This document shows, in pieces, positions 1 through 21,362 of a stretch of 64,000 nt of DNA (position 1 is the first letter of the stretch; each line of letters begins with the position of its first letter). The stretch spans positions 28,875-92,874 of the forward strand of contig CAJKBQ010000004.1 in assembly GCA_905198155.1 (NCBI GenBank), read 5' to 3'. The stretch comes from an uncultured Eubacteriales bacterium (GTDB taxonomy: Bacteria > Bacillota > Clostridia > Oscillospirales > Acutalibacteraceae). The notes beneath the pieces were generated by a model. It ran no database searches, was not told the origin of the DNA, and saw nothing but the letters and a program-made list of their open reading frames with translations. The position numbers and the translations under genes are program-made.

Positions 1-584
1 CCGTCGCACAGAAAATGAAGCGGCGCTGGATCGGTGTGGAAATGGGTAATCACGCCTATACCCACTGCAAAGTGCGCATGGATAAGGTCATTGCCGGAGA
101 AGACCCCGGCGGCATTACCAAGGCACAGAACTGGCAAGGAGGGGGAGGATACCGCTTCTATGAGGTCGCACCTACGCTCATTAACAAAGACCCCTTTGAC
201 GAATATGTCATCAACGAGGACTACGACGCCAATATGCTGGCAGCTGCGGTCGCCCTGCATGAGGGATTTCGCTATCAGCCGGATGGAGACCTGTTCTGGA
301 AACAGTCTGTAGGCAACGAGAACAGCTACCTCTTTGTGACTACCCGCCACCTGAACAGCCCCTATCTGGACTCCATCAAGGACACCATGGAGGAGGGCGA
401 GTATCTGATCATCGCTTGCCGCTCCTTTGACAGCGGACTGGACAAGGCTTACGATAATATCACAGTGAAGAAGATCCCGCAAATGCTGCTGGAACGCTGC
501 GAGTTCGGCAAAGCGGATTACAACCTGAATATCGTACACCCGCCGGTGTATGATGATTGCGACGAGGAGGAAGAGGATGTCTAA
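1..584 (+). CDS. mod: Type III restriction-modification methyltransferase (Mod), C-terminal ~190 aa. The gene starts upstream of the window.
   Basis: The reading frame is open back to nt 1. The stop overlaps the start of the downstream Res helicase by 8 nt (ATGTCTAA), the typical mod-res arrangement. The MTase assignment rests mainly on this context plus weak resemblance (RRWIGVE) to the region after motif I of beta-class N6A methyltransferases. Confidence 0.5.
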   Translation, partial: VAQKMKRRWIGVEMGNHAYTHCKVRMDKVIAGEDPGGITKAQNWQGGGGYRFYEVAPTLINKDPFDEYVINEDYDANMLAAAVALHEGFRYQPDGDLFWKQSVGNENSYLFVTTRHLNSPYLDSIKDTMEEGEYLIIACRSFDSGLDKAYDNITVKKIPQMLLERCEFGKADYNLNIVHPPVYDDCDEEEEDV

Positions 585-3228
585 CGATTTCCCGCTCTAT
601 ACCACAGACTATATCAGTGGCGTCATGTCCCTCCGCAAACCGCAGACGCAATCGTTGAAGATTCTTGAAGAGATCACCAACGCCGTACAGCTCCGCAAGG
701 GCATGAATCTGAAGGCGGCACTGGGTGCTGTCCACGCTATGTATCCGATCTGCTCCGATTTTGAGCGTGACTTTATGTCCCTGACCTTTGCTCTGGCCAC
801 CGGTGTGGGTAAAACCCGGCTGACGGGCGCATTTATCGCCTATCTGTATACGCAGCACAACATCCGAAACTTTTTTGTGGTTGCGCCAAACACCACCATC
901 TATGAAAAGCTCAAGAAAGACTTGAGCGATAACGGCAGTCCGAAGTATGTGTTCCGTGGACTGGGCTGTTTTACCGTACAGCCGCAGATCATTACGGATG
1001 ACGATTACCGGGAAAAGAATCTCTCTTTGTTTGAATCCGATGTACATATCTTCGTATATAACATCGATAAGTTCAACAAAGAGGGCGCAAACATGAAAAA
1101 AGTGAACGAGCTTATCGGTGACTCGTTCTATCAGGCGCTCTCCAATCTGCCGGACTTGGTGCTGATTATGGATGAATCTCACCATTACCGGGCGGAGAGG
1201 GGTATGCAGGCACTCAACGAACTGCATCCGCTGCTGGGATTGGAGCTAACTGCGACTCCCCTTGTGACGAAGGGTAATAAGCAAGTTCCTTTCAAAAATG
1301 TTGTATATGAATATCCGCTGTCCAAGGCCATCGAGGACGGCTATACTCGCACACCCTTTGCCGTGACCCGCTCGGACATTGATTTCTATAACTTCGGTGA
1401 TGAACAGCTGGATAAAATGATGCTGCTGGACGGCATCACCTGCCATGAGAGCACCAAACGGAAGCTGGAGGTTTATGCTGTCAACCATGGAAAGCCGGTT
1501 GTGAAGCCGTTTATGCTCGTAGTTTGCAAGGATACAGATCACGCAACCTGGGTGGAGCAATTCGTAAAGTCAGACGAATTCCGTGGTGGCGCATATCGCA
1601 ACAAAACGATAATCGTCCACTCTAAACAGAAAGGCGCAGAGACCGAAGCGAACACTCGTCTGCTTCTGGATGTGGAAAACCCGAAAAATCCGGTGGAAAT
1701 CGTAATCCACGTCAATATGCTCAAAGAAGGCTGGGATGTCAACAACCTCTATACCATCGTTCCGCTCCGGACGGCCGCATCCAAAATTCTGCGGGAGCAG
1801 ATGGTCGGTCGCGGTCTGCGTTTGCCCTATGGCGAGCGTACCGGAGATTGTGATGTTGACGCAGTTATGCTTACGGCACACGATAAATTCAACGACATTC
1901 TGGCGGAGGCGCAGCGCGGTGATTCCATTTTCAAGGCAGGGAATGTTATCAAGGCGGAAGAAATTGTGCCGGAACAGGTTACCACCACGCAGTTATCGTT
2001 TGACATGCCGTCCAACGAAAGCCACGATGAAGCATATTCCTTCACACAGATTGAGCGGACAGAGCAGACCGACGCTGTGATCTCCAGAGCGCAGACGCTG
2101 ATCCGGCAGGAGGTTTCCCGCAGCATTCAGACCGAGCCAGAGCATACCGTTACACCTCAAACCGCACAGAAAATTGTTGATACGGTTGCTGCACAGCTCT
2201 CTGTGGATAAGGACTTGGGCGTTACGTTCCATGAAAATGAGATGCCGTTGGCCGCATGGATGCTGTATCAGACGGAGCAGACACATATCGCCGCAAAAGC
2301 AAAGTTCATCCCGATTCCCCGTATCAAGATCACGGATGCCGGCGTTGAGGAATATGTGTTTGTGGATTTTGATCTCGATGTGTCGGCCTTTAATCATGTG
2401 CCTATTCGCAATGAATTGCTAATCCAGAACCTTGAAGACATGGCAGATCGCCAGCGCATCAAGGGAGACGCCATTGATTTTGAAGGCTATAACCCCAAGA
2501 AAGTAATTCTGGATGAGCTGCGCAAAAAGCCGGAGATCGACTATGAAAAATGCTCTGCGCTTTTGTTCAAAATGATCTCCCGGCTTTGCGACCACTATAC
2601 AGCGAACCACGGCGAGAACGGCATGCGCAATATCGTTATGATGTATAAGCGCGATATCGCAAACAAGCTGTATGCGCAAATGATGCAGCATTTTTACTGT
2701 AAGAACGGCTTTCTGCAAGAGGAGGTCGTTGGTACCCGCGAATATAATCTCCAGCAGACTTATAGCTGGAGAGAAAAGGTCGGCCTTTTTGAATCCTTTA
2801 CCGAGGATATCAGGAATGTGCTGTTTACCGGTATTCAAAAGGGCGTTTTCAGTGAGGCGAAGTTCCATAGCAAGGACGGAGAGCTGACGCTTGCCCGTGT
2901 GATGGAAACAGATTCTGATGTCATCAACTGGCTTAGACCGCATCCCCGTGAGTTCAATATCACCTATAACCACGGCCATGCGTACGAGCCGGACTTCGTG
3001 GTAGAAACCGAGGATATTATTTATCTGGTGGAGGTCAAGGGCGAGGATAAGCTCAATGACCCGGATGTAATCGCAAAGAAAGAGCGAGGGATACAGTATT
3101 GCGCCGTTGCCTCCCGTTGGGGCAAAGCCAACGGATACAAGGAGTGGCAGTATTTGTTTATTCCGGCGGGGCAGATCAGGTCGAGTTCTACCTTTGCGCT
3201 TTTGGCCGAGAGGTTTAAGGAGCTGTAA
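577..3228 (+). CDS. res: Type III restriction endonuclease Res subunit (SF2 helicase-like).
   Basis: Walker A GVGKTRLTG and a DEAH-like LIMDESHHY motif are present. The protein is ~880 aa. A strong RBS (GAGGAGGAAGAGG) precedes the ATG at 577, which overlaps the mod stop. Confidence 0.8.
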   Translation: MSNDFPLYTTDYISGVMSLRKPQTQSLKILEEITNAVQLRKGMNLKAALGAVHAMYPICSDFERDFMSLTFALATGVGKTRLTGAFIAYLYTQHNIRNFFVVAPNTTIYEKLKKDLSDNGSPKYVFRGLGCFTVQPQIITDDDYREKNLSLFESDVHIFVYNIDKFNKEGANMKKVNELIGDSFYQALSNLPDLVLIMDESHHYRAERGMQALNELHPLLGLELTATPLVTKGNKQVPFKNVVYEYPLSKAIEDGYTRTPFAVTRSDIDFYNFGDEQLDKMMLLDGITCHESTKRKLEVYAVNHGKPVVKPFMLVVCKDTDHATWVEQFVKSDEFRGGAYRNKTIIVHSKQKGAETEANTRLLLDVENPKNPVEIVIHVNMLKEGWDVNNLYTIVPLRTAASKILREQMVGRGLRLPYGERTGDCDVDAVMLTAHDKFNDILAEAQRGDSIFKAGNVIKAEEIVPEQVTTTQLSFDMPSNESHDEAYSFTQIERTEQTDAVISRAQTLIRQEVSRSIQTEPEHTVTPQTAQKIVDTVAAQLSVDKDLGVTFHENEMPLAAWMLYQTEQTHIAAKAKFIPIPRIKITDAGVEEYVFVDFDLDVSAFNHVPIRNELLIQNLEDMADRQRIKGDAIDFEGYNPKKVILDELRKKPEIDYEKCSALLFKMISRLCDHYTANHGENGMRNIVMMYKRDIANKLYAQMMQHFYCKNGFLQEEVVGTREYNLQQTYSWREKVGLFESFTEDIRNVLFTGIQKGVFSEAKFHSKDGELTLARVMETDSDVINWLRPHPREFNITYNHGHAYEPDFVVETEDIIYLVEVKGEDKLNDPDVIAKKERGIQYCAVASRWGKANGYKEWQYLFIPAGQIRSSSTFALLAERFKEL

Positions 3229-3281
3229 TGGTCGATAGCTATAGTATCGGCTATGTGCCACATAGGAGAAAGAGGTTTATT

Positions 3282-6044
3282 ATGAGTTATTCGGGCATTG
3301 AGCATAAACTGAGAGTTTTTATCAGTTCTAAATGTGGCGGGAAATACACCATCGCAAGGAAATCGTTACAGAAGCTGTTAGATGTAACAGGCTTGGTAGA
3401 AACATATGTTTTTGAAACAGATCCAGCCAGCAGCGAAGACACGCAAAGTGCTTATTTGGATTATGTTGACAATTCAAATCTCTGTATCTTTCTCGTTGAT
3501 AATGCGGATGGGGTTCCTCCGGCTGTCTTAAGTGAAGAAAAAAGAGCAAAAGACAAGCATTTAAGATTGCTTTATATTTTTTGCGATGAGAACAAGAAAG
3601 AGCCAACCCCCATGCAGGAAGATGTCAGAAAACTGCAATCAGCAAAGTATGCTCTTGCACACGAGTTTTCTGACATCGTCTCCAAAGCATACGATAGCGT
3701 GATGCAGGACGTTATCGCGGTATATAAGAAGAAGGAAGAACTGTTTTCGGTCGAAAAGAGCGAAGTCGAGCCAATAAGTGCTAAGGCGCTAATCACTGAA
3801 ACATATTCGCTTCCAGCCACGAGTTTTTCAAAATACCCGCATGTTGCATGTGTACTCACAAAAAATATACTTCCGGTGAACCCGCTTAATAAAGAGGATG
3901 AAGAAACATCGCTCGAAAGACTGCTGTCTGAGCATCTGCAAACCGTTATTTTTCAAAAGCCCTTTGATGAGACTATTATCGATAGCATATGCACCGAAGT
4001 GAGCAAAGAGAATAACGGGGAAATATGCGAAGTTTTGCAGCTGCGATATCAGGCTCAAAAATGCTACTATCTCACTAAGTATGATGAATGTCTTATGTTG
4101 CTTCAGCAAGCTGTTTCTACTGCGATTAATAAGCAAGGTATTCCAACGTGGATTGCAAACGACATCGCAATCGATATCCGACATGTCAAAGGACGAATTG
4201 ACGAAAGAAATAGCACATTCACTCTTGAAAATCCGGGTCAAAAACTAATAGATACGAGCGGCGAACCGGTGTATTTCCCGTACTTGGATAGACAAGTCGA
4301 AAACATGCAGGAAGAGATAGCCAAAAAATATTATTCTCAGTTAAGCATTTCTCCCTACACAACAAACTGGGGTGGACTGGATCAGATTTTTTCTCCGCTT
4401 GCAAATGCTTTTTGCATTGCTGAAATGCACGGATCTATTGTTCAAACAGAGATAACGCGAGACAGGCTCATTTCGATTTATTCGATGCTCTGTATTCTTT
4501 ATGAAGATCATGAATTGCTTGTCGAATACATTAAGTATCTTATAATCAACCGAGACTTGAAGAAACTTGATGCGGTAATCAGGACATATAATCAATCCAT
4601 AGATATCCTCAATGGTCAGGATATTGATTCGATTATGGATTGTATCAATAATATGTTTGATCCTATTCATCAAATAATGTCTAAATATCTTCTGGCCAGC
4701 CGGCTTGGATATTATATGAGCGATACAGCATATTCTGCTCTTTATAGCGAATTGATAGATTACGCTATGAGGTGGGTTCAAGACGATAAGCGTGTTTACA
4801 ATATCAATACTTTTATTTTTGATTTTTTTGGACAGAACACTTACCGTATGAATGGCAAAGATATTGTTGCCTTTATACGTGAGGTATTTCATCATGGGTT
4901 GAAGCGCTTTTATATGGATTGTTTTAAGGTGCTTCGCAGTATTGATTTTGAAAAGATTACTCAGAAGGATCAGCTCAAGGTAAAACAAGTATTACTTGAT
5001 GTGACAGCGACAGAAAACGAACAACTCTTTGATCAATACTATTCTTCGGCAGTTATCCGGTTTTGCAAGACTACTGAGGTGTTATACGAAGACCTTGAAG
5101 CAGTAATAGCGGAAAAGTATCCTGATTTTTATAAGCATACATTCTTGTTGGAAATGTCAGCACAACGAAATCAAGACTTCTCTGAGCACATCAAATCGTA
5201 TATAGCGGAAGCAAAATCTCGCAACGAAACGCAGGAAATGAATGGGACATATTCTGGATATGCCTACGAAAGCCTTGATGTGGTTTATAATATTCTAAAA
5301 ACAGAGGAAATCATTCTCGGTTCAGAATTGCTAAAAAGCATTATCGATGCAGGAATTGAAACTCTATCTTCAGAAAAGCAAACAATACAAGCCAAGAGAT
5401 CGGCGGTTCGTCTTTTGCAATTTGTATATTTCAGAAGCCGTGAACAAAAAGAACTCTGGAATGAAATAGGCGACCAAATGATAGCCAATGCTGCAGCTTT
5501 TTCTATCGGAAATGAGATGGGATTTTTCTCAAAAGATACAAATCGCATATTATCATTCCAGTATTACCTCTTTATTTACAGTTCTTTCGAACCAGGCTGC
5601 GAAGGTCTGCTTGATCAGCTATATTCAACAGATTCATCGGAAGCGTATACCATTGTGCAGTTTTTGAAGATAATAACTGATTTTCTTGAGTGCGCAAAAG
5701 ATCAATTGGAGGATGATACTCTCATTTCAGCATTTTTGTATTATAGCATTTTTATGTCACAGCATAAGGAGCGAGATGTAAAGTATTACGCGACCACATG
5801 TCTGATTGAGCTAACTAATTTCGAAAATGCAAAACGCCTTGCTTTGATTCATCTATCGCAAATCATGGATACTGGATCACAAGCAGCTAAGATTGCAATC
5901 TTAACTCGTCTGGGGCGAATACAGGTTAATGAGGATGATTCGTATTTAAGGCAAATAATAAACAAAGGCAAGTCAGACAGCAATTATCTTGTACGGTTTG
6001 TTGCAGCGCGTGACGATCTTGACTCTATTGGTGACAACGTATGA
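3282..6044 (+). CDS. DUF4062-like N-terminal domain protein with a ~800-aa all-helical repeat C-terminus (TPR/HEAT-like). Function unknown; candidate defence protein.
   Basis: An RBS (AGGAGAAAGAGG) lies 6 nt upstream of the ATG at 3282. The N-terminus reads KLRVFISSKCGG...FETDPASSEDTQ...NLCIFLVDNADGV, matching the DUF4062 'vFISS' pattern. No Walker motif is present. GC is about 37% against about 50% in the flanking genes. The frame is open from 3228 (TAATG with the res stop), and the gene end overlaps the next gene by ATGA. Confidence 0.7.
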   Translation: MSYSGIEHKLRVFISSKCGGKYTIARKSLQKLLDVTGLVETYVFETDPASSEDTQSAYLDYVDNSNLCIFLVDNADGVPPAVLSEEKRAKDKHLRLLYIFCDENKKEPTPMQEDVRKLQSAKYALAHEFSDIVSKAYDSVMQDVIAVYKKKEELFSVEKSEVEPISAKALITETYSLPATSFSKYPHVACVLTKNILPVNPLNKEDEETSLERLLSEHLQTVIFQKPFDETIIDSICTEVSKENNGEICEVLQLRYQAQKCYYLTKYDECLMLLQQAVSTAINKQGIPTWIANDIAIDIRHVKGRIDERNSTFTLENPGQKLIDTSGEPVYFPYLDRQVENMQEEIAKKYYSQLSISPYTTNWGGLDQIFSPLANAFCIAEMHGSIVQTEITRDRLISIYSMLCILYEDHELLVEYIKYLIINRDLKKLDAVIRTYNQSIDILNGQDIDSIMDCINNMFDPIHQIMSKYLLASRLGYYMSDTAYSALYSELIDYAMRWVQDDKRVYNINTFIFDFFGQNTYRMNGKDIVAFIREVFHHGLKRFYMDCFKVLRSIDFEKITQKDQLKVKQVLLDVTATENEQLFDQYYSSAVIRFCKTTEVLYEDLEAVIAEKYPDFYKHTFLLEMSAQRNQDFSEHIKSYIAEAKSRNETQEMNGTYSGYAYESLDVVYNILKTEEIILGSELLKSIIDAGIETLSSEKQTIQAKRSAVRLLQFVYFRSREQKELWNEIGDQMIANAAAFSIGNEMGFFSKDTNRILSFQYYLFIYSSFEPGCEGLLDQLYSTDSSEAYTIVQFLKIITDFLECAKDQLEDDTLISAFLYYSIFMSQHKERDVKYYATTCLIELTNFENAKRLALIHLSQIMDTGSQAAKIAILTRLGRIQVNEDDSYLRQIINKGKSDSNYLVRFVAARDDLDSIGDNV

Positions 6045-6982
6045 AAGAACAAAGAGGCTATATCGTAATCCTCCCGGAACAGATCATCGAAATCCCCCTA
6101 AGCAGCAACCTTTCCTGGCTGCGGATGTTCTATGCGCTGCCGCGTGAGCTTGTGGAGAAGCGTCCGGAGTATTTGGAACTGCCGAGAAATATCCGGCGTT
6201 TGCTCGACAGCGAAAAGTACCGCAGTATGCTGAAAAGCGACAGCTTTTTGGAGCTTGTATGGGATTGCTATGCCTGGGCTGCCTGGCAGTTCTTTCAGGT
6301 TCCGAAAAAGGGCGGCAAGTATCAGGACATCCCCGGAGACTGGCAGAAGTATTCCGGCGACTTCCCATTGTGGAGAATGGCATATCTCATTCTCCCACAT
6401 TTCCGCAACAGGATCGAGGCGTCTGACGGCGCCAGCTTCCAGGAGCTCTTTACGGAGCCCACAGCGCATGACATTGATTGGCTGACATACGAGCAATTCA
6501 GCGTGTTTGTTGAAGACCTCACCAAAATAACCGTCGAAGAGGAAAACTGGCAGCCGCTTATTGACGAGATATGGAAATCCCGTCAGCCGGAGGATTATGC
6601 CGGAAAAAGCGTTCAGAAGCGGGACTTCATGCGCTCATGGATGCACAGCCGGACAATACCCGCCCTGTCCTTGGAGGAAATCAGAGCAAACGGGCTGTCA
6701 ATCAACGGCGATGCTCTCTATGATATCGCTGACCCAAGTGCGGAATTTGAAACGAGGGTTCTGGAAAAAGCCAAGATGGATGATTTCAAAAGCCGTTTGA
6801 GTGAGACGGATCAGAGAATTCTGGAGCTTCGAGCCGCGGGTTATTCTCAGAAAGAAATCGCAGAGAGGGTTGGTTTCAAGGTGCCGAGCGCAGTTTCAAA
6901 GCGAATCCGGCAGGTGGCAAATCGTTTTGACGATTTTGTAAGCAAGGAATACGGCGAATTCATAGACAAGCATATAGAGTAG
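6041..6982 (+). CDS. HTH protein with a C-terminal sigma-70 region-4 / LuxR-like helix-turn-helix. The N-terminal domain is unknown.
   Basis: The C-terminus reads DQRILELRAAGYSQKEIAERVGFKVPSAVSKRIRQVANRF, typical of a sigma70-r4/ECF-type HTH. The start overlaps the upstream stop (ATGA). No sigma region-2 motif is seen. Confidence 0.6.
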   Translation: MKEQRGYIVILPEQIIEIPLSSNLSWLRMFYALPRELVEKRPEYLELPRNIRRLLDSEKYRSMLKSDSFLELVWDCYAWAAWQFFQVPKKGGKYQDIPGDWQKYSGDFPLWRMAYLILPHFRNRIEASDGASFQELFTEPTAHDIDWLTYEQFSVFVEDLTKITVEEENWQPLIDEIWKSRQPEDYAGKSVQKRDFMRSWMHSRTIPALSLEEIRANGLSINGDALYDIADPSAEFETRVLEKAKMDDFKSRLSETDQRILELRAAGYSQKEIAERVGFKVPSAVSKRIRQVANRFDDFVSKEYGEFIDKHIE

Positions 6983-7166
6983 GAATTGCGCCTTTTCGCT
7001 GTGTACATACGTACCGAAAAAGTTTTTCAAAAAAATTCTCAAAATTGGAACAAAACACATTCCCCCATGCCCATATACTATGGAGAGGGAGAAAACAAGC
7101 GAAGCTTTGTCAAAAGACGGAGCCTCGCTTGTTCTTTATCTGAGAGAAATTTGCCGGAGGTGCAAC

Positions 7167-7640
7167 ATGAAAGAACAGAACAGAATAACGGAAGCGGCTT
7201 CCGAAAATCGAAAGCGCGGTAGGCCTCCGATAGATATCGGGACTACTTCCTGCTTAGACGGTACTCGCCGTACACAGGTCAATGCAAAGTATATGTTTGA
7301 GGCAATCAATATAATTTCGGAAGCCGCTTCCGAAATTCCGGATAGCCATATGCTCTGGCGTTCCGATGACGCAACACAAACCGCCACCGGGAAGCACGGC
7401 ATACTGGAACAGATTGGTCGTATGTGGCTGCAGGATCGTATGTCCTATGAATCCTGCGTCCTTATCGCGAACTTATCTATCAGTGCATTGAAGATGGGGT
7501 ACAAATCCCGTGAGATCGAATATGCGATTCGTAAAATCCGCAATGCAGCCAAGCTTGTAAAGAAGAATCCATATAGTGATTGGTTCTACCAGTCGGAGGT
7601 GGAAGCCATCAGAGAGTTTCAGAGAATGGCCGGAGATTGA
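7167..7640 (+). CDS. Hypothetical 157-aa protein with an AT-hook-like KRGRPP motif. It contains two copies of a palindromic DNA repeat.
   Basis: An RBS (GGAGGTG) lies 5 nt before the ATG at 7167. The ORF is open to the TGA at 7638. The upstream extension to 7080 has no RBS. Coding status is uncertain because of the embedded palindromes. Confidence 0.4.
   Translation: MKEQNRITEAASENRKRGRPPIDIGTTSCLDGTRRTQVNAKYMFEAINIISEAASEIPDSHMLWRSDDATQTATGKHGILEQIGRMWLQDRMSYESCVLIANLSISALKMGYKSREIEYAIRKIRNAAKLVKKNPYSDWFYQSEVEAIREFQRMAGD
7189..7203. repeat. Palindrome copy 1: CGGAAGC-g-GCTTCCG.
   Basis: 7-bp inverted arms around a single central nucleotide. Same core as copies 2 and 3. Confidence 0.8.
7313..7337. 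repeat. Palindrome copy 2: AATTTCGGAAGC-c-GCTTCCGAAATT.
   Basis: Perfect 12-bp inverted arms. Confidence 0.85.
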
Positions 7641-7669
7641 GGAATTTCGGAAGCGGCTTCCGAAATTCC
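7641..7669. repeat. Palindrome copy 3: GGAATTTCGGAAGC-g-GCTTCCGAAATTCC.
   Basis: Perfect 14-bp inverted arms, immediately after the TGA of the 7167 ORF. Confidence 0.85.
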
Positions 7670-7748
7670 TTCCTTCAAGCCGCTGCGGGCAGGCGCCGTA
7701 CATAGCCCGGACATTTTGCCGGGCTAAATCTTACGAAGGAGTGATAGC

Positions 7749-8339
7749 ATGCCACAAATCGAAATCATTAAAGCAAAGGTTGCACCTGCCGACGCCGCAC
7801 GACAGTACGGATTGACCGTACACAGGAACGGGATGGCGCTATGCCCGTTCCACAACGACACCAACCCGAGCATGAAGCTCTATGACGACCACTTCTACTG
7901 CTTCGCCTGCGGGGCGCACGGGGATGTCATCGACCTGTCAGCAAAGCTTCTGGGGCTGAGCTTTACGGAGGTTATTCACCGTATTGCCGTGGATTTTGGT
8001 ATTGACCCGGACAAGCCGCCGACTTTGATGCCGGTAAGACCGTATCTCGCGCAGTTCCGGAAGGACGAAACGCTGTGCATTTCAGTTCTCACGGAATATG
8101 AGCAGCTGCTCCGCCGCTGGAAGACCGAATACGCACCGAAAACGCCGGATGAAGAATTCGACGACCGTTTCGTGGAAGCCTGTCAGATGCTCGACACAAT
8201 CGAGTATTTGGCAGATTTTTTATGCGCCGCAACATTGGAGGAGCGCGTAAAAACCGTGGACGACCTGCTTCAAAACGGTCTGATAGAAAAGCTGCGTTAC
8301 AGATTGGAGGGGGTGCATGCCAATGGACGAGCTGCTTGA
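7749..8339 (+). CDS. CHC2 zinc-finger protein (DnaG-type primase zinc-binding domain; no Toprim).
   Basis: CPFHNDTNPSM...CFACGAHGDVID is a CHC2 zinc-finger signature. An RBS (GGAGTG) is present. The gene overlaps the next gene by 23 nt. Confidence 0.75.
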   Translation: MPQIEIIKAKVAPADAARQYGLTVHRNGMALCPFHNDTNPSMKLYDDHFYCFACGAHGDVIDLSAKLLGLSFTEVIHRIAVDFGIDPDKPPTLMPVRPYLAQFRKDETLCISVLTEYEQLLRRWKTEYAPKTPDEEFDDRFVEACQMLDTIEYLADFLCAATLEERVKTVDDLLQNGLIEKLRYRLEGVHANGRAA

Positions 8340-9642
8340 TTGCCCAATCTGGTGGAACGGAAAAGATATTGTCGAGGCGGCATTCTGCGAAGAGTTCACA
8401 CGCAATCATCAGCTCGCTTATGATTGCAGCGCCTTCTTTACACCGGAGGGACACATGACGGACGAGCGCCCGTTGAAACAGAAAATCTATCATGAGCTGA
8501 AAATCTGCGCCGTCAAAAACGTACCGCACACCATCAACAATATCGTGGAGCTTTTGAAATTCTACAGTACGGGTATCGATCTTGCGCCGCAGCAGGACAG
8601 AGTTCATCTTGCAAACGGAACGCTGTATCTGGACGGGACGATTGTCCCCGGAAAGCCTGAGATCGTCCGCAGCCGTTTGCCGATCAGGTACGATCCCGAT
8701 GCTCCGAGACCGGAAAAGTGGCTGCGATTTTTGCATGACCTGTTCCATGAGGAAGATATCCCGGCTTTGCAGGAATACCTCGGATACTGCCTCATCCCCT
8801 CTACCAAAGGTCAGAGAATGATGATTATCAAGGGAAAGGGCGGCGAAGGAAAAAGCCAGATCGGCAGCGTCATGAACGCTGTCTTCGGCAGCAACATGAA
8901 GGACGGCAGCATCGGAAAAGTCTCGGAAAACCGATTCGCCCGCGCCGACCTTGAACACCAGCTTCTTATGATCGATGACGATATGAAAATGGAAGCGCTG
9001 AAACAGACCAACTATGTAAAATCCATCGTTACCGCACAGGGGAAAATGGATTTGGAACGCAAGGGCAAGCAGAGCTATCAGGGCTGGATGTTCTGCCGAC
9101 TGCTCGCCTTCTCCAACGGAGATTTGCAGGCGCTTTATGACCGCTCCAACGGCTTTTACCGCCGTCAGCTCATTCTGACCACGAAAGAAAAGGCGACAGA
9201 CAGGATGGATGATCCGGATATCGCCGACAAAATGAAGGATGAGGCGGAGGGCGTTTTTCTCTGGATGTTTGCGGGATTGCAGCGGCTTGTTTCAAACAAA
9301 TTCCAATTCACGGAAAGTGAGCGCATCCGCAATAACCGCGAGTACGTAAAACGGGACTCCAACAACCTGATCGATTTTATGGAGGATGAGGGCTATGTGC
9401 GGCTCAAAGCCGATTGCAGTGCCTCTTCCAAGGAAATCTATGAAACCTATGCCATCTGGTGTGAGGAAAATGCAATGACGCCTTTGAAGCCCCGTTCCGT
9501 CAGTGATTTTCTGGTGGAGAACGAGAAGAAATACAATCTCGAGCACACCAACACCATTACGAATTCTGCCGGACGGCGCGTCTGGGGATTTCTCGGAATC
9601 GAGCTGTTGGTGAAACCCTACTGTAACAGCAGCTTGCGGTAA
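8317..9642 (+). CDS. Phage/plasmid primase of the P4 family, C-terminal domain (D5_N plus SF3 helicase-like NTPase).
   Basis: Walker A KGKGGEGKS. Overall resemblance to P4-type primase-helicase / virulence-associated protein E proteins of Firmicutes mobile elements. Confidence 0.7.
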   Translation: MPMDELLDCPIWWNGKDIVEAAFCEEFTRNHQLAYDCSAFFTPEGHMTDERPLKQKIYHELKICAVKNVPHTINNIVELLKFYSTGIDLAPQQDRVHLANGTLYLDGTIVPGKPEIVRSRLPIRYDPDAPRPEKWLRFLHDLFHEEDIPALQEYLGYCLIPSTKGQRMMIIKGKGGEGKSQIGSVMNAVFGSNMKDGSIGKVSENRFARADLEHQLLMIDDDMKMEALKQTNYVKSIVTAQGKMDLERKGKQSYQGWMFCRLLAFSNGDLQALYDRSNGFYRRQLILTTKEKATDRMDDPDIADKMKDEAEGVFLWMFAGLQRLVSNKFQFTESERIRNNREYVKRDSNNLIDFMEDEGYVRLKADCSASSKEIYETYAIWCEENAMTPLKPRSVSDFLVENEKKYNLEHTNTITNSAGRRVWGFLGIELLVKPYCNSSLR

Positions 9643-9756
9643 AACGATATGTACGTATGTACACAGCGAGAAGGCGATGTTCGCCAATATACAGGAGGTG
9701 CCGATGAACAAGGAGCTTGAACGACTGAATGATGAAAAACCCGTAATGAGGCAAAG

Positions 9757-10008
9757 ATGCGACAACTGAAAAATGAGATCAAGGCTATGGAAGCCGCTGA
9801 AAAAGGGCTTCTCCGGAAGCAGCGGAACCGGAGAATCTTCACTCGCGGCGGGATGTTGGAAGCATTCCTTCTGAAACCGCTGCTGCTGACCGACAAACAG
9901 GTACACGAGCTCCTGCTCACGGCGTTCCGTCAGCCTGCCGTTGACGCGCTCCTAAAGGCGATGATCCAAAACGCCGGAAAAGAAGACACCGGGGATGAGA
10001 CCCGATGA
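9757..10008 (+). CDS. Small coiled-coil hypothetical protein (possible relaxosome accessory, DUF3847-like).
   Basis: An 83-aa ORF directly upstream of the relaxase. A 21-codon ORF with a strong RBS (CAGGAGGTG) at 9703 in another frame could be its N-terminus if a frameshift is present. Confidence 0.3.
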   Translation: MRQLKNEIKAMEAAEKGLLRKQRNRRIFTRGGMLEAFLLKPLLLTDKQVHELLLTAFRQPAVDALLKAMIQNAGKEDTGDETR

Positions 10009-10059
10009 AAGAGGGCGCAATTATACACCGGTTTCCCGGTGCTCTTGCGTTTACAAGGT

Positions 10060-10135
10060 TGTTGGATTCTCGCAGGCTCCAATCACAGGGGCAAGCCCCT
10101 GCGCCGTTCCGGCTACCCTGTTTTAAGGTCGCAAA
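10060..10135 (+). other. Candidate oriT: inverted repeat CAGGGGCaaGCCCCTG followed by a GGCTACCCTG nick-like core.
   Basis: The IR lies in the ~150-bp intergenic region immediately upstream of the MobA/MobL relaxase. The downstream core resembles MOBQ-type YATCCTG nick sequences. Weak, position-based call. Confidence 0.3.
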
Positions 10136-10163
10136 GCGCGACTTGTGGGAATGGAGGTGATTC

Positions 10164-11696
10164 ATTATCGCATGTCCGCATTTTTCAATCTCTATCCGGC
10201 AAAGAAGCAAACCGCAGTCCGCCGTTGCCGGAGCCGCCTATCAGAGCGGCGAAAAGTTTTTCAGCGAGTACGACTTGAAGACAAAAAACTACAGCTATAA
10301 ATCCGGCGAGGTCTTGGCAAAAGGCATTCTCCTTCCACCCAATGCTCCGCCGGAATACGCAGACCGTCAGGCACTGTGGAATGCCGCCGAGAAGGTCGAA
10401 GGACAATGGAACGCCCAGCTTGCGCGGGGAATCATCATGGCGCTGCCAATAGAACTGCCCAAAAACGAATATGAAGCCTTGATCCGCGATTACTGCCGGG
10501 AGCAATTTGTCTCCCGCGGCATGATCGCGGACTTTGCGATTCACGACAAAGGCGACGGCAATCCTCACGCGCATATTCTGCTGACAATGCGGGCGATGAA
10601 CGAAAACGGGAAGTGGCTTCCGAAAGCGCGCAAGGTTTACGATCTCGACGAAAACGGCGAACGCATCCGGCTCCCGTCCGGCGAATGGAAAAGCCATAAG
10701 GAAAACACCGTTGACTGGAACGACAGAAAGTACGCCGAGGTTTGGCGTACCGAATGGGCGAAGGCGGTCAATCGGTATTTTGAGAAAAACGGTATCCCCG
10801 AACGGCTCGATCTTCGCTCCTTTGAGCGCCAGGGCAAGGCGGAGCTTCCGACGATTCATCTCGGTCCGGCGGTCGCCCACATGGAGGAAAAAGGAATCCG
10901 CACGGAGATCGGTGAATACAACCGCCGGATAAAAGAGCATAACAGCGCGCTTTCTTCGCTGCGGCGACTGCTGACCGATCTGTCCGCCTGGCTCAAATCC
11001 GTGGTGCGGAAGATTTCGGAATTCACCGAGAAAGAAGCACCCCAGCCCACGATTCTGGATTTTGTCAATGCCTATTATGATATGAGAAAGAATCAGCGTT
11101 TTGACTGGAATAAATACGCGAAACAAAAAGGTTCTGTCGTAGATTTGAAGCAACGTTCTAAAATCTTCAACTGGCTGCAGGAAACAGGGATCACAACTAT
11201 GGAAGATTTCAAGGTCATGCTTAAATCCCAACAGCCGATTATCGACAAAGTCAAAGCCAACGAAAAGCGCATCAAGCGTCTGGAAACCGGCATCGGTTAT
11301 ATCGACACCAGCGCACGCCTGAAGCCGATTGCCGATAAATCCAAGCGTGGATTCAAAAGTATAAGAGAAAAGTATGCAGAGGCACACGGGGACGAACTCG
11401 CCGAATACAACAAAGCAATTCGGTATTTGAAAGCAAACAACATCACCAACGAAGACCGTGAAAAGCTTGCAGCCGAAGTGCGGATGCTCAAAAAGGAAAA
11501 CAAGAAGCTCAATGACCAACTGCAATCTGCAAATATGGATTCGGAAATTATCCGGCAAATCCGGTATTGTGTGGACACAGTGCTCCATGAAGCAGAGATT
11601 CCAGAGAAAAAAGAAAGTGTCATGGTGATGTTGAAAGCAGATAGGACACCCGCACCGCAGAAAAGGATTCACAAAAAAGAGGAGCTGTCAATGTAA
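10164..11696 (+). CDS. MobA/MobL family relaxase.
   Basis: The HxH motif DKGDGNPHAHILLTMRAM is present. The conserved N-terminus ...IACPHFSISIRQRSKPQSAVAGAAYQSGEKF (catalytic Tyr region) is in frame upstream of the first canonical start (TTG at 10275). The frame opens after the TGA at 10158, and only ATT/ATC codons are available as start. Confidence 0.75.
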   Translation: MIACPHFSISIRQRSKPQSAVAGAAYQSGEKFFSEYDLKTKNYSYKSGEVLAKGILLPPNAPPEYADRQALWNAAEKVEGQWNAQLARGIIMALPIELPKNEYEALIRDYCREQFVSRGMIADFAIHDKGDGNPHAHILLTMRAMNENGKWLPKARKVYDLDENGERIRLPSGEWKSHKENTVDWNDRKYAEVWRTEWAKAVNRYFEKNGIPERLDLRSFERQGKAELPTIHLGPAVAHMEEKGIRTEIGEYNRRIKEHNSALSSLRRLLTDLSAWLKSVVRKISEFTEKEAPQPTILDFVNAYYDMRKNQRFDWNKYAKQKGSVVDLKQRSKIFNWLQETGITTMEDFKVMLKSQQPIIDKVKANEKRIKRLETGIGYIDTSARLKPIADKSKRGFKSIREKYAEAHGDELAEYNKAIRYLKANNITNEDREKLAAEVRMLKKENKKLNDQLQSANMDSEIIRQIRYCVDTVLHEAEIPEKKESVMVMLKADRTPAPQKRIHKKEELSM

Positions 11697-12015
11697 CCGC
11701 AAGGATGATTTGACTTGAGCCTCGATTCATCAAAGACAGCAGAAATAAGACATCGTCATCGCAGTACGTGGATGACAGAAAGTGAGTTGTATATGAAATA
11801 ATGCTTGAATAGCTGGCTGGCTGGAAAGGACTTGTATTTGGAAAACTACAGGAACGAATTGATGCAGGATCGAAACTTTATTCGCTGCTCCGTTATGATA
11901 GCTGAACTGCTGTTAAAATATAAGACGAAAGAAATCGGTGATACGGAGGATAACGGGGAACCCACCGGTTCCCCGCCCTCGGAATTTACATATAGGTACT
12001 TGATAATATCTGTGT

Positions 12016-12050
12016 CATTGTTTATAATAAACCCATATAGAAAAATACTA
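12016..12050 (+). promoter_or_regulatory. Sigma-A-like promoter TTGATA-17-TATAAT upstream of the recombinase remnant.
   Basis: Hexamers with 17-nt spacing in the AT-rich region. Confidence 0.4.
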
Positions 12051-12113
12051 CTGACAATATAATGAAACATGGAAAAGCGTTAGAGGATTTTACGGAAAGG
12101 AGATGAGCTGTTC

Positions 12114-13432
12114 ATGGAGAACGCATATATCTATACTCGTGTTTCCACGCTCATACAGGTGGATGGCTTCTCTCTTGATGCGCAGGAAGAAGAAATCAGA
12201 GACTTTGCCAAGAGGCGGGACATCAGCATCGTAGGAAAATACTCTGATGAAGGCAAATCCGGCAAGAACGCCGAACACAGACCTGCGTTCAGCCAAATGA
12301 TGGAGGATATATCACCCGCAAGCTGAATGATGAAAATGTAACGAGGCAGCAGCGCGGAAATACAAAGATTTCCGGGTTTACTGATAGAACGATCCGGGCT
12401 ATTCTGAAAAATCCTGTCTACGAAGGCAAGATTGCCTATGGCCGCCGCCATACGGTAAAAGTTGAGGGTACAAACAACGAGACAAAGGTCGTAAAACAGG
12501 ATGACGAAAGTAAAATCATACTGGTCGATGGCTTACACGACGCAATTATATCCGAGGAAACCTTTGAAAGAGCCCAGAGTCTTCTTGCAAAACGCGCAGC
12601 CCACAGGAAAACCCGCAGTGACAGCACCAATATTTATCCGTTGACGGGCCTCATCAAATGCCCGGATTGCGGCAAAAACCTTTTCGGGTATACGGCTCCG
12701 CAAAGGCCGCGAAAAAACGGAAAGGAAGGCTTTTATCCCCGGTATATTTCCTATCGCTGTATTTCCGGCAGAGACCGAAACGGACTGATCTGTTCATTGG
12801 CAAACAAGTATTACAGTGGCACTAAGCTGGAAAAGGAGGTGCGCGATGTTATCTCCGCGATGGTAACGATCCCGGAATTTGTAGAATTGATCTCAAAGAA
12901 AGTAGACTGTGAAACCGATATTGAGCGTCTAAGAAAGAAACGAGCCGGAATTGAAGCCGAGCACAATAAATACAGAAACAATCTCATGCAGACCGAAAAA
13001 AGACTTTCAGAGCTGGATGCCGGTGACAGACATTATGAGAAAAAGGTTGACAGTCTGAACCGCGTATTAGATGATATCTACGACAAGCTGGATGATACTC
13101 AGACAAGGCTGGATCAGGTCGATGACGAAATCACGATGGTACAGAAATCCACCATGACGAAGGAATCCATCTTTGAAATGCTGGAAGGGTTCAGCAAATA
13201 CTACGATGTAATGTCCCCGGAGGACAAGAAAGGACTGCTGCGAGCCATGATTTCTTCCATAGAAATCAACGAGCTCCCAAAGGGAAAACGGGCAGACGGG
13301 CGTCTGATTAAAACCATCCACTTTACATTCCCTGTGACCTATGACGGAGAAAGTGGAGTCTTGTTTGTCAGCAATACAGGCGGTGAAGTTGAAACCGTCT
13401 GTCTCCTCACCAAACACGCAGAAAGTAAATAA
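12114..13432 (+). pseudogene. Large serine recombinase, internally deleted and frameshifted.
   Basis: The N-terminal 70 aa (MENAYIYTRVST..., catalytic Ser present) stop at 12326. The recombinase-domain tail (…ITRKLNDENV…IRAILKNPVYEGK…), the Zn ribbon (CPDCGKNLFGY) and the coiled-coil continue in the -1 frame, open from 12246. About 150 aa are missing: the rest of the catalytic domain, helix E and the start of the recombinase domain. Confidence 0.75.
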
Positions 13433-13511
13433 AATCCAATCCACTCGGTCTCTTCGTCCCATTTTTATTTCCATAAAATAAAACATTCCCAATTTTCGAT
13501 TTTCGAGCGAG

Positions 13512-13560
13512 AAAAGATAACAGCCCCCGTTCTGCTGCAAATTTGCCGCAGGACGGGGAC
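13512..13560 (-). terminator. Rho-independent terminator for the ABC substrate-binding-protein gene.
   Basis: Hairpin CCCCGTTCTGC...GCAGGACGGGG followed by a T-rich tract on the minus strand. Confidence 0.6.
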
Positions 13561-13591: not shown

Positions 13592-15223
13592 TTATTTGCC
13601 GCTGGTGAAGCGATCGTACGCACTCTGATACGCGCCGATCAGTTCGTCGAGGTGCAGCTTCGCAAAGCCGTCGCAGTAGTCTTTCCACACCGCGTCATCG
13701 CTCGGGTTTTTGGTTCCGGTGATAAACGCGCCGTTCCACTCTTTGACGTACTCTTGCAACTCGGTCTGATAGGTTGTGACGACGTTCGTCTCTTCCTCGT
13801 TCATCGTGCCATACAGGAACGGTACTTCCTCTTCGTAGGGCTTGGTGTTCTTGATGTAGCCCATCTGGCGGGAGCGGTTGTTGCTCGCACCGGCCAGCAC
13901 CGCATTTTTGAACGTATCGTAGCGGCCGAGGTTGGAGAAGATGATGGCGTAGCCTTGGTACGGGCCGTTGGCTTCCGCATCGTAGTCACCCGGGATGATG
14001 TAGTTGTACTCGGTATGATCTGCGTTCGCCCACTCCCACGTCACGTTTTCCGGACCGTAGGTGCCGGCGATGCCGTACATCCCGGAGCCTTTCACGACTT
14101 CTTCGCTCGCGAACAGCACGTCGAGCATCTGGCAGATTTCCTTGGCGTATTTCGACTCCGCGTTGACCGCCGTACCGGTCGGCGCAATCACGTTGCCGGC
14201 GTAGATTTTCCGCTCACTGTCGTACTTGGAGGTCAGCGGCGCGAGCACCTGCAGCTTTTCAAAGTCGCCGTTGAACGCAGCTTCCGTCGCATTGCCCCAG
14301 CCGTCCTGGCCGAACGCCAGCTTGCGGTCGTTGATCATCGACGCTTTGGTGGAATTGTCGAGGGTGAGGTATTCCTGATGCAGCAGCCCTTCCGCATACA
14401 GCTGGTTCAGATACTGCATCGTCAGCCGGTACTGGTCGCTGTCGCGATCGTACACGACTTTGCCGTTGGCATCCGCGTAAAAGTCCGGAGAGGTCGCCGG
14501 GCCGAACGCCGAGAAGAAATAGTAGTCGCCGTTGCTGCCCCAGATGTGAGCCGAAACGTTGTCCGCATACGGCGCGCCGCCGAGTTTTTCTTTCAGCGTG
14601 ACCAGCGCATCGTGGAATTCGTCCACGGTGGTCGGCACTTTGATGTTGTACTCTTCGAGCAGGCTGGCATTGTAGTGCATCCGGACGATGGAGCTGGTGG
14701 GACCGTTGTCAATTTTCAGCAGTTTATAGATGCCGCCGTTGGATGCCATGCAGCGTTTTTTGGCCGCAAAGTTTTCGTAGTCTTTATAGGTTTGCTGCAG
14801 GTTCGGCATCACATCGGCGTAATCTTCGTAGTTGACGATTTTTTTGCCGACGACACCCCATTCTTCGATCAGGTCATCAGTGAATCCGTCGTGGAACAGA
14901 TCCGGCCAGTTGCCGGCCGCGATATAGACCGCCCGCTGATCGCCCGGGATAATCTTCCAGTCCACTTTGATGTTCGTGATTTTCTCCATCTCGTCCCAAG
15001 TGATGCGCGTGTTGGTTTTCTGGGAACCGAACACCACACCGGAGACCGTGACTTTGTCTTTCACGAGCGGGTAGATCGACGTTTCCGCCGCGCTGGACGT
15101 GTCCGCTTTGGACTCCGTGCCGGACGGCGTGGGCACAGTCGAGCTGGCCGGCGTTTTGGCGCAGGCCGCGAGGCTCACGCACAGGCAGAGTGCCAGTGCG
15201 AGCGCGAGCAATTTTTTGTACAT
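13592..15223 (-). CDS. ABC transporter substrate-binding lipoprotein (large extracellular solute-binding protein, copy 1).
   Basis: Signal peptide plus lipobox MYKKLLALALALCLCVSLAAC. An RBS (AGGAGGAAG) precedes the start. The protein is ~540 aa, of the LplA/YtcQ-type family. Confidence 0.85.
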   Translation of the reverse strand: MYKKLLALALALCLCVSLAACAKTPASSTVPTPSGTESKADTSSAAETSIYPLVKDKVTVSGVVFGSQKTNTRITWDEMEKITNIKVDWKIIPGDQRAVYIAAGNWPDLFHDGFTDDLIEEWGVVGKKIVNYEDYADVMPNLQQTYKDYENFAAKKRCMASNGGIYKLLKIDNGPTSSIVRMHYNASLLEEYNIKVPTTVDEFHDALVTLKEKLGGAPYADNVSAHIWGSNGDYYFFSAFGPATSPDFYADANGKVVYDRDSDQYRLTMQYLNQLYAEGLLHQEYLTLDNSTKASMINDRKLAFGQDGWGNATEAAFNGDFEKLQVLAPLTSKYDSERKIYAGNVIAPTGTAVNAESKYAKEICQMLDVLFASEEVVKGSGMYGIAGTYGPENVTWEWANADHTEYNYIIPGDYDAEANGPYQGYAIIFSNLGRYDTFKNAVLAGASNNRSRQMGYIKNTKPYEEEVPFLYGTMNEEETNVVTTYQTELQEYVKEWNGAFITGTKNPSDDAVWKDYCDGFAKLHLDELIGAYQSAYDRFTSGK

Positions 15224-15307
15224 AGTTGACTTCCTCCTAAAAAATTGAAATTTTTCTATTCGCAACGCTGCCGCTGCAGTCGGCGGCGCAGGAATCAAAG
15301 TGAGATT

Positions 15308-16216
15308 TCAGCCTTTGACCGACCCGATCATCACGCCCTTGACAAAATATTTCTGCAAGAACGGATACAGGATCAGCACCGGCAGCGACGATACCACGAT
15401 CACCGCAAACTTAATCTGCTGCGCAATTTTATACATTTCGTCCGCATTTTCCTGATCGAACGAGCCGTTGACCATGCTGGACTGCGTAATCGCTTCGACC
15501 AGGATGGTGCGCAGCACCAGCTGGAGCGGGCGTTTGTTTTGGTCGTAAATATACATCATCGCGTTGAAGTAGCTGTTCCACTGTTCGACGGCGAAGTACA
15601 GCACCATCACGCCCAGCAGCGCCTGCGAGATCGGCAGCACGATCTGCAGAAAATACCGCATCGGCGAGCAGCCGTCGATTGCGGCCGCCTCCCCCATCTC
15701 CGCCGGGATTGACGAAAAGAACGTCCGGCAGATAATGCAGTTGTAGCAGTTGAACGCGCCAAGAATCAGCAGCACCGCGCGGGTGTTGTACAGCCCCAGG
15801 TTTTTGATGAGCAGGAACGTCGGGATCATCCCGCCGCCGAAATACATCGTGAACATGAAGATGCCCATGAAGATATTTTTGCCCGGCACCTTCCGCTGCG
15901 CCAGTGCGAATCCGCACGGCACCGTCACGACCATATCGATCAGCGTGCCGACCACGGTGTAAAAGAGTGTGTTGGCATAGCCGGTCATGATGCTGTCGTC
16001 CTGAAACACGCGGCGGTAGCCGGAGATTGTCACCTGCTTTGGCAGCAGGATCACTTCGCCGCTGTACACCGCGTCCGGCGAGCTGACCGACGCCGAAACG
16101 ACGTAAACCAGCGGGTAAATCACGATCACCAGCGCCAGCGCCAGCAGAACATATGCAATCGTCAGAAACACGCGGTCGCCGGCGGCCATCCGGATTTTAT
16201 TTTTCGTGTGAGCCAT
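15308..16216 (-). CDS. Carbohydrate ABC transporter permease (LplC/YtcP-like, copy 1).
   Basis: Multi-TM protein with an MetI-like EAA region. Confidence 0.85.
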   Translation of the reverse strand: MAHTKNKIRMAAGDRVFLTIAYVLLALALVIVIYPLVYVVSASVSSPDAVYSGEVILLPKQVTISGYRRVFQDDSIMTGYANTLFYTVVGTLIDMVVTVPCGFALAQRKVPGKNIFMGIFMFTMYFGGGMIPTFLLIKNLGLYNTRAVLLILGAFNCYNCIICRTFFSSIPAEMGEAAAIDGCSPMRYFLQIVLPISQALLGVMVLYFAVEQWNSYFNAMMYIYDQNKRPLQLVLRTILVEAITQSSMVNGSFDQENADEMYKIAQQIKFAVIVVSSLPVLILYPFLQKYFVKGVMIGSVKG

Positions 16217-16231
16217 ATCGTCCGCGCCCCC

Positions 16232-17182: not shown

Positions 17183-17258
17183 ATTCGATTCCTCCTGAGA
17201 GATTTGTGCCGGGTGTTTCCGTCGTTTTGCACGGAAACGCTGTCCGGTCGATGGCACA

Positions 17259-17304
17259 ATTATATCCCGCCGCCGCAGAAAATGCAAGAGTAAAGTTTTG
17301 CAAG
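17259..17304 (-). promoter_or_regulatory. Promoter TTGCAT-17-TATAAT with an upstream direct-repeat motif CTTGCAaaactttactCTTGCA (operon copy 1).
   Basis: Hexamers with exact 17-nt spacing. The TGCAAAACTTTACT motif recurs at 21341-21362 and 21507-21520. Confidence 0.55.
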
Positions 17305-19271: not shown

Positions 19272-19356
19272 AGTTGACTTCCTCCTAAGAAATAAGTTTT
19301 TTCTATTCACAACGCAGCCGCCTGCAGTCGTCCGCGCAGGAACCAAAGTAAATGGT

Positions 19357-20265: not shown

Positions 20266-20281
20266 TTTTGTCCGCACCTCC

Positions 20282-21232: not shown

Positions 21233-21316
21233 TTTCAATTCCTCCTGAGAATTTTGTACCGCGTCCTCGCCGCATTGGCATTTGAATTTCGGAAAAGGAC
21301 TTCGGTTGATGGCACA

Positions 21317-21362
21317 ATTATACCCCCTCCCCGCGAAAAACGCAAGAGTAAAGTTTTGCAAG
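21317..21362 (-). promoter_or_regulatory. Promoter TTGCGT-17-TATAAT with the same upstream CTTGCAAAACTTTACTCTTGC motif (operon copy 2).
   Basis: Duplicate of the copy-1 promoter architecture. Confidence 0.55.

Follow-up and report, generated by a model that had tools for sequence, protein, structure and literature searches.

The clostridial elements Tn4451/Tn4453 and Tn5397 cross over at a GA dinucleotide, and Tn4451, which is mobilizable through a Mob protein that it encodes itself, the relaxase TnpZ, has a relaxed choice of target. The large serine recombinases (LSRs) of these elements, TnpX in Tn4451/Tn4453 and TndX in Tn5397, need no separate directionality factor (PMC5704250). The rumA gene is a known target of serine integrases, used for example by IME_SpnAP200_rumA (PMC5357655; Guedon et al. 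2017, PMC5704250), and IMEs (integrative and mobilizable elements) which combine a serine integrase with a MobQ relaxase and have no coupling protein constitute Class_IME_5 (Coluzzi et al. 2017, PMC5357655). The vanG/ICE-r elements of Streptococcus agalactiae/anginosus, Enterococcus faecalis and Roseburia intestinalis insert after the GA of a Glu codon that precedes the end of rumA by about 11-13 codons, and both flanks show GA (Srinivasan et al. 2014, PMC4120198). Their right-end serine recombinase gene has no stop codon and is fused in frame to the 3' codons of rumA, and the 5' part of rumA is fused to a start-less left-end open reading frame (ORF) of about 100-115 codons (PMC4120198). These authors reasoned that many different elements must use the rumA site, and left the meaning of the fusions open (PMC4120198). 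Here we analysed a stretch of 64,000 nucleotides from an uncultured Eubacteriales bacterium (Acutalibacteraceae; contig CAJKBQ010000004.1, positions 28,875 to 92,874), hereafter the window. We consider it highly probable that positions 1-13392 of the window are the right-hand 13.4 kb of a 16,469-bp IME, equipped with a serine integrase and a MobQ relaxase and no coupling protein, inserted in rumA.

In terms of composition, the GC content is 47.5% at positions 1-13390 and 57.3% at 13393-64000, and the corresponding GC fractions of one-kb segments are 0.473 ± 0.050 in the island and 0.574 ± 0.032 in the remainder. These values are close to the 48-50% and about 60% given in the first-pass annotation, which a model had made from the sequence alone. 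Outside the island the window is core chromosome, with two paralogous ABC sugar-transporter operons, mnmA, cysS, miaB, recA, dnaK, ftsH and gdpP. The RecA of this host is 72-79% identical to those of the nearest named relatives (Faecalispora, Acutalibacteraceae and Clostridia metagenome-assembled genomes (MAGs)).

Related contigs were found by exact-protein look-up of the neighbouring ABC binding protein. This led to two contigs identical to the window (L001 and L002), three that are free of the island (L006-L008) and one that carries another LSR element at the same place (L005). A further contig, L010, was found by look-up of a 938-aa protein encoded by the element and is the window's own contig extended leftwards (window coordinate = L010 coordinate - 6773). 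Contigs L006-L008 come from the same species; their flanking host DNA is 99.5-99.6% identical and the whole block is absent, rather than syntenic in all close relatives as the first-pass annotation had considered for the case that no element were present. The empty sites hold an uninterrupted 419-aa rumA-like (PF05958) methyltransferase gene, whose stop codon lies 160 bp from the ABC binding-protein gene, and homology between the window and these sites reaches position 13391 and no further left.

Alignment with such insert-free relatives, as the first-pass annotation had recommended, resolved attL and attR to a shared GA. In attR this dinucleotide occupies 13391-13392 and is the true right boundary of the element, based on comparison of attB (L006), attL and attR. 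In attL it is located at L010 3695-3696, 3,077 bp before the window, in agreement with the earlier placement of the left end outside the window. The sequences are ...CACCATATC-GA-AACCGTCTGTC... for attB, ...CACCATATC-GA-GACGGTGTGTC... for attL, ...GGTGAAGTT-GA-AACCGTCTGTC... for attR and ...GGCGGTGAAGTT-GA-GACGGTGTGTCTC... for attP as reconstructed. GA is the sole sequence common to attB, attL and attR, which is the signature of the 2-bp staggered cut of a serine recombinase. The right boundary had previously been put at 13.45-13.56 kb; the true position is 60-170 bp further left, inside the recombinase ORF. Because the empty-site homology starts at 13391, the last 40 nt of this "recombinase" ORF (13393-13432) are host rumA. 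From the stop of the ORF (13432) to the stop of the ABC binding-protein gene (13592) we measured a gap of 159 bp, and not the 130 bp reported earlier between the recombinase remnant and the ABC genes. The insertion target is the rumA gene, which had gone unrecognised in the first-pass annotation. Whole-window Rfam and tRNA scans gave no matches, and the target is therefore not a tRNA or tmRNA gene. We also considered inverted repeats at the ends of the element, and rejected them as unconvincing (13 of 30 positions match in register).

The GC content inside the island is uneven, ranging from 37% to 55% with dips to 37-39% across the gene of the 938-aa protein. Such heterogeneity might be expected of a native low-GC region, or of an island gained by homologous recombination with no site-specific mechanism. 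However, the empty site is defined with 2-bp precision inside a coding sequence, and identical ends are found in unrelated genomes, so that we attach next to no probability to this explanation and retain that of an IME inserted by site-specific recombination.

The target GA opens the Glu codon, as its bases one and two, within the C-terminal H-I-E-T-V motif of the rumA-like methyltransferase, the 13th codon from the end of rumA in this host. We take this Glu to be the counterpart of the catalytic base of E. coli RumA, and a catalytic role would account for the conservation of the site among hosts. The genes of the element and the rumA remnant within the window lie on the forward strand. The remnant (13393-13432), recognized by its identity to the end of the 419-aa rumA in L006-L008, begins with the third base of the Glu codon and continues with 12 codons (TVCLLTKHAESK) and a stop codon, in frame with the recombinase ORF. 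Lacking a stop codon within the element, the LSR ORF reads across attR and ends on host codons as ...GGEV-E-TVCLLTKHAESK*. At attL, the sequence of the element restores rumA through ETVCLL and then adds 94 further element-encoded residues, resulting in a fused RumA of 506 aa as against 419 aa for the uninterrupted protein. The 419-aa allele predominates in the 90% cluster of the host's rumA, and the 506-aa fused allele is found on 10 contigs. Integration creates the two in-frame fusions because attP is situated within the LSR reading frame. For annotation, this means that the stop codon of the "recombinase" and the long rumA gene are artefacts of integration fusion.

The rumA/GA target, both in-frame fusions and the occurrence in tandem arrays are features that the element shares with vanG/ICE-r, a likeness in site and gene arrangement. 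The vanG/ICE-r elements are about 45 kb in length and carry conjugation genes along with vancomycin or other resistance genes, whereas the present element is 16.5 kb, has a relaxase only, carries phage-defence cargo and resides in an uncultured gut Clostridia host of 57% GC. Unlike Tn4451, which also has a different relaxase, it targets one codon of one gene and its attP is inside the recombinase ORF.

We then turn to the distribution of the element. A 16.9-kb unit with an intact LSR is present in a quite different genome beside an unrelated, TRAM-domain rumA (left flank dnaE-pfk-rumA), and outside a 3-kb patch of restriction-modification (R-M) genes it shows about one difference per kb from the window copy. 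Intact copies measure 16.9 kb, compared with 16,469 bp for the copy in the window. In a genome scan, a 100% identical LSR with the same upstream genes was found in the MAG "Christensenellaceae bacterium Phil1". In a pattern search, the last 26 nt of the element were found to be followed by GA and then by the rumA 3' end of a host, with at least four different such ends recovered. The same 26-nt right end also leads into neighbouring elements, of which at least four differ from one another; the LSR frame runs on through their left-end tails, and these loci represent tandem arrays. Among LSRs with 73-90% identity, from genomes of Lachnospiraceae, Oscillospiraceae, Acutalibacteraceae and Christensenellaceae, all 22 of 22 end in a rumA-type VE(T/A)V... 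C-terminus.

In the tandem arrays (L009 20532-21134; L013 12403-12750; L089; L094; L028; L037), the LSR ORF runs into the left-end tail of a different rumA element, with DUF6061 or other genes after the tail, and the resulting "recombinases" are 658-663 aa in length. In the same-species strain represented by L005 (1974-3758), the same rumA site holds a different element with a 594-aa LSR and a SHOCT-like gene; the site is therefore a hot spot for unrelated LSR elements.

As for the gene content of the element, the first-pass annotation had listed mod-res, cargo, a CHC2 protein, a P4-type primase-helicase, MobA/MobL, an AT-rich junction and a serine recombinase, all of which was borne out by hidden Markov model (HMM) searches. 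The MobQ (MobA/MobL) relaxase gene (10167/10275-11696) matches MobA_MobL (PF03389; 3.9e-76, from profile position 23) and NF041496 MobQ (3.1e-54), and its product contains the AAYQSGEK motif in frame. Upstream of it lies a candidate origin of transfer (oriT) block (10060-10125) with a hairpin, CAGGGG-CAAG-CCCCTG (10086-10101). The block is conserved upstream of the relaxase gene in L021, where the hairpin displays one compensatory stem change (CAGGGC...GCCCTG). The CHC2 (DnaG-type) zinc-finger protein (7749-8339; 196 aa) was identified by Zn_ribbon_DnaG (2.4e-15) and TIGR01391 (1.7e-17), and the P4-family primase C-terminal/DUF5906 NTPase (8317-9642; 441 aa) by DUF5906 (5.3e-19) and TIGR01613 (1.7e-34, above the cut-off). 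Concerning genes of a type IV secretion system (T4SS) or coupling protein, HMM scans of all called genes from attL to attR revealed no VirB4, VirD4 or TcpA-like protein. The architecture proposed earlier for an IME thus stands, with a relaxase, no mating-pore or coupling-protein genes, a terminal serine recombinase, precise att junctions and an empty site in the same species.

In these respects the element resembles the streptococcal Class_IME_5/rumA IMEs, whose description by modules is also that of a single serine integrase and a PF03389 relaxase with no coupling protein or T4SS, and it has the rumA target and tandem accretion in common with the streptococcal rumA IMEs. It differs from the streptococcal IMEs in bacterial class, in cargo and in the added CHC2/P4-type primase-helicase module. 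What is new about the element is confined to the host group, the cargo and the primase-helicase module.

Two other origins were weighed against this gene content. The P4-family primase C-terminal domain and the CHC2 zinc finger, the large serine integrase at the end of the element, and the matches of DUF6061 and the left-end tail to PHROG families with no assigned function could all belong to a phage satellite or defective prophage, that is, a phage-inducible island moved by packaging and not by conjugation. However, the element carries a full-length MobQ relaxase gene with a conserved upstream block, and not one of the called genes is of the capsid, terminase, portal, packaging or lysis type. 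A megablast search of INPHARED (50,697 phage records) gave no match to the element, and the combination of an integrase, MobQ and no coupling protein is that of a described IME class (PMC5357655). We regard a satellite or prophage as very improbable. The second possibility is a remnant of a larger integrative and conjugative element (ICE), or an integrated plasmid, that was stripped of its transfer genes and is not mobilizable by design. The copy in the window is visibly decaying, and ICEs with related serine integrases also use rumA (PMC4120198, PMC5357655). On the other hand, a unit with the same two ends and the same gene set, and no T4SS genes, occurs in several genomes, and a megablast search of the PLSDB plasmids gave no match to the element. 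The moving unit is therefore the IME itself, and we give a stripped ICE or plasmid very little credence.

The copy of the LSR gene in the window (12114-13390) was compared with that of an intact relative, which has 562 codons of its own and matches Resolvase (1.4e-38), Recombinase (3.6e-23) and Zn_ribbon_recom (7.8e-8). The window gene keeps the N-terminal 66 codons, in which the nucleophile motif YTRVST is found. They are followed by a 386-bp deletion bounded by two ATATA repeats (junction 12307-12311), through which LSR codons 67-195, the greater part of the catalytic domain, are lost and the reading frame is shifted. Beyond the deletion, the recombinase, zinc-ribbon and coiled-coil domains are retained. 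With only codons 1-66 of the catalytic domain left and the frame broken, the gene is therefore an LSR pseudogene. The first-pass annotation had spoken of a recombinase remnant; the gene is indeed disabled, but through an internal deletion and not through truncation at its end. It had also suggested looking for a second recombinase upstream of the window. None is present among the genes from the left edge of the window to attL on L010, which are the tail, DUF6061, an AAA_14/DUF4143 ATPase and the start of mod.

A second lesion affects a DUF3847 gene (9704-10008; DUF3847 3.1e-9), probably a relaxase accessory gene, which is split by a frameshift. A 1-nt deletion has left A5 at 9735-9739, where intact copies (in comparison with L009) show A6 and encode 101 aa. 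The two lesions recur in two independent assemblies/samples (L001 and L002), and are therefore not errors specific to the window. Judging from these sequences, the window copy is presumably unable to excise by itself. As both att junctions are intact, it could move only with a related LSR supplied in trans. The copy in the window would be a fixed, non-autonomous remnant.

Two further contigs, L003 (7339-7393) and L004 (5374-5435), which stem from other samples, match the window on its host side as far as 12138, a position 25 nt inside the recombinase gene. Beyond this position they continue with unrelated GC-rich sequence that is found in no other locus. The break may reflect another rearrangement or insertion in those strains.

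The cargo begins with a type III R-M system. The window opens within the methyltransferase gene mod, of which the 3' part of 193 codons is included (1-584; PADLOC MTase_III 5.2e-55). The full gene (L010 5759-7357; N6_N4_Mtase 4.5e-45) is 532 codons long, with its start 1,014 bp to the left of the window. The restriction subunit gene res (577-3228; 883 aa) was called on L009-L012 and matches Pfam ResIII (3.2e-21) and PADLOC REase_III (1.4e-146). The two genes are adjacent with an 8-nt overlap and make up a standard type III pair. Further cargo to the left of the window is the AAA_14/DUF4143 ATPase. In comparison with L009, the window copy has 216 substitutions in a patch from -1000 to 2000 in window coordinates, covering the 3' half of mod and the 5' third of res, against about 22 substitutions in the remaining ~13 kb of the element. 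Amino-acid identities are 523/532 for Mod and 865/883 for Res. The patch looks like a recombination patch, and may have brought a change in specificity.

The next gene (3228-6044; 38.8% GC), whose start overlaps the stop of res (ATGA), encodes the 938-aa protein, assigned through a DUF4062 match and an AlphaFold2 model. DUF4062 (NIR) is a TIR-like NADase in phage defence (three 2026 preprints), and Vulcan, for which an Enterobacter protein was tested, is a single-protein anti-phage NADase with an N-terminal NIR(DUF4062) and a C-terminal HEAT region (Le Mouellic et al., bioRxiv 10.64898/2026.09.04.749371). The family of the 938-aa protein comprises 243 homologues of ~915 aa, many with precomputed PF13271. 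The model (pLDDT 82.6) predicts a five-stranded alpha/beta domain at residues 28-167, followed by an all-alpha solenoid of about 730 residues (204-936; pLDDT mostly >85). The best Foldseek matches of the model are HEAT proteins (SF3b155, importin-beta and PP2A-A); a PDB sequence search with the protein gave no matches. Residues E63, E103 and E121 are invariant in 39 homologues. E121, which stands in an F-C-D-E sequence after the fourth strand and would be residue 103 if the protein were translated from M19, is a candidate catalytic Glu. Like Vulcan, this is a single-gene protein, with an alpha/beta N-terminus of putative DUF4062 type and a HEAT-like solenoid, and its gene is found on a mobile element beside other defence genes; the comparison is one of architecture. 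A clear member of Vulcan would differ from it in two respects, as the DUF4062 score is below threshold here and the counterpart of the catalytic Glu of Vulcan (E98) is inferred only. Membership in the Vulcan NIR-HEAT architecture is plausible, and by analogy the 938-aa protein probably acts as an NAD+-depleting abortive-infection defence like Vulcan. Homologues on L084 and L087 are located on other mobile elements with tyrosine integrases, where they adjoin a type IIG-like methylase, DndB-like genes and a BREX brxL/pglZ cluster.

Taking into account the families to which these genes belong, the following course of events can be proposed for the element. The right-end LSR would recombine attP with a site in the host gene for a rumA-like RNA uracil-C5 methyltransferase, cutting at the GA dinucleotide of the HIETV Glu codon. 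The excised circle would be nicked at the oriT upstream of the MobQ relaxase gene and exported via a mating pore that a co-resident conjugative element provides. The CHC2 zinc-finger protein and the P4-type primase-helicase would then prime or replicate the transferred DNA.

Several points weigh against our reading of the locus as a mobilizable element with defence cargo. Excision, transfer and the helper are a proposal for every copy, deduced from gene content. In a JGI metagenome scan, neither the attP junction nor an excised circle was matched, in a collection with only 8 copies of the element. The folding energy of the oriT candidate hairpin is no better than that of shuffled sequences (z -0.6). 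With the 938-aa protein, the match to Pfam DUF4062 (PF13271; E 1.9e-4) scores 22 bits, short of the cut-off of 24.7. The relaxase gene raises a further point. The listed ORF starts with TTG at 10275, and the in-frame stretch upstream of it, from ATC at 10167, encodes the conserved N-terminus MACPHFSIS...SAVAGAAYQSGEK. The conserved N-terminus is in frame from this ATC only, in a position where the 68% identical relaxase of L021 (about 700-816) has an aligned ATA; a GGAGG Shine-Dalgarno sequence is located 9 nt upstream of the ATC. There is no canonical start codon in frame with the conserved N-terminus, and expression of the relaxase is assumed for this reason. A non-canonical ATC/ATA start seems more likely than a +1 frameshift at T5 (10180-10184) following the out-of-frame ATG at 10172, which we rate lower because the aligned codon in L021 is CTG.

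The position of attP within the recombinase frame has the consequence that the two states of the element encode different recombinases. In the circular form, or at the junction of a tandem array, the LSR carries the conserved 94-residue tail. In the integrated form it ends in 12 host rumA codons, and the tail is transferred onto RumA. The tail, at L010 3697-3997 and thus 2.8-3.1 kb to the left of the window, is part of a family in which 1,709 protein clusters are counted and 14 residues are invariant; a number of its members are annotated as partial RlmD. The core of the tail is confidently predicted as a small three-helix unit. A fold search with the model gave no match better than E 0.4, and the tail matched no Pfam family and one PHROG family, to which no function is assigned. 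We entertained the idea that the C-terminal swap is a built-in directionality switch replacing a separate recombination directionality factor, in which the tailed LSR would be biased towards integration and the tail-less one towards excision, or vice versa. Another possibility is that RumA or the ribosome is modified by the tail in lysogens. We regard these readings as unlikely. This tail with its C-terminal swap is the sole part of the system with real potential for novelty.

The remaining features of the island are as follows. A 313-aa protein (6041-6982), whose gene overlaps that of the 938-aa protein by 4 nt, has a C-terminal sigma-70 region-4-like helix-turn-helix (Sigma70_r4_2 2.2e-4 and HTH_38, both below gathering scores; TIGR02937 1.3e-5) and is probably a regulator. 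A 157-aa protein (7167-7640), a gene for which was called in all copies, has no family match. Between the relaxase and recombinase genes lies an AT-rich spacer (11697-12113; 40% GC), distinguished by its composition, with a small ORF at 11862-12062. A near-consensus sigma-70 promoter, TTGATA-17-TATAAT, is predicted within it at 12000-12028, upstream of the recombinase gene.

On the host side, a GC-rich hairpin (CCCCGTTCTGCTGC...GCCGCAGGACGGGG) at 13524-13557, between the rumA remnant and the ABC binding-protein gene, is probably a bidirectional terminator. It is host sequence, present at the empty site as well, and was missed by a simple terminator scan. The tandem paralogous ABC sugar-transporter operons (14348-17304 and 18405-21362, both on the reverse strand) are 82% identical over 2,988 nt, each consisting of two permeases and a lipoprotein binding protein.

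The element leaves the current understanding of IMEs unchanged. Our analysis provides a base-pair-exact set of attB, attL and attR, together with a reconstructed attP, for a rumA-specific LSR of gut Clostridia, and att-site sets of this sort are what genome-engineering screens for integrases seek. Since the backbone of the 16.9-kb carrier shows about one difference per kb when compared across bacteria whose families are apparently not the same, the results point to a recent horizontal spread, in the human gut, of the type III R-M system and the DUF4062-HEAT (Vulcan-like) gene.

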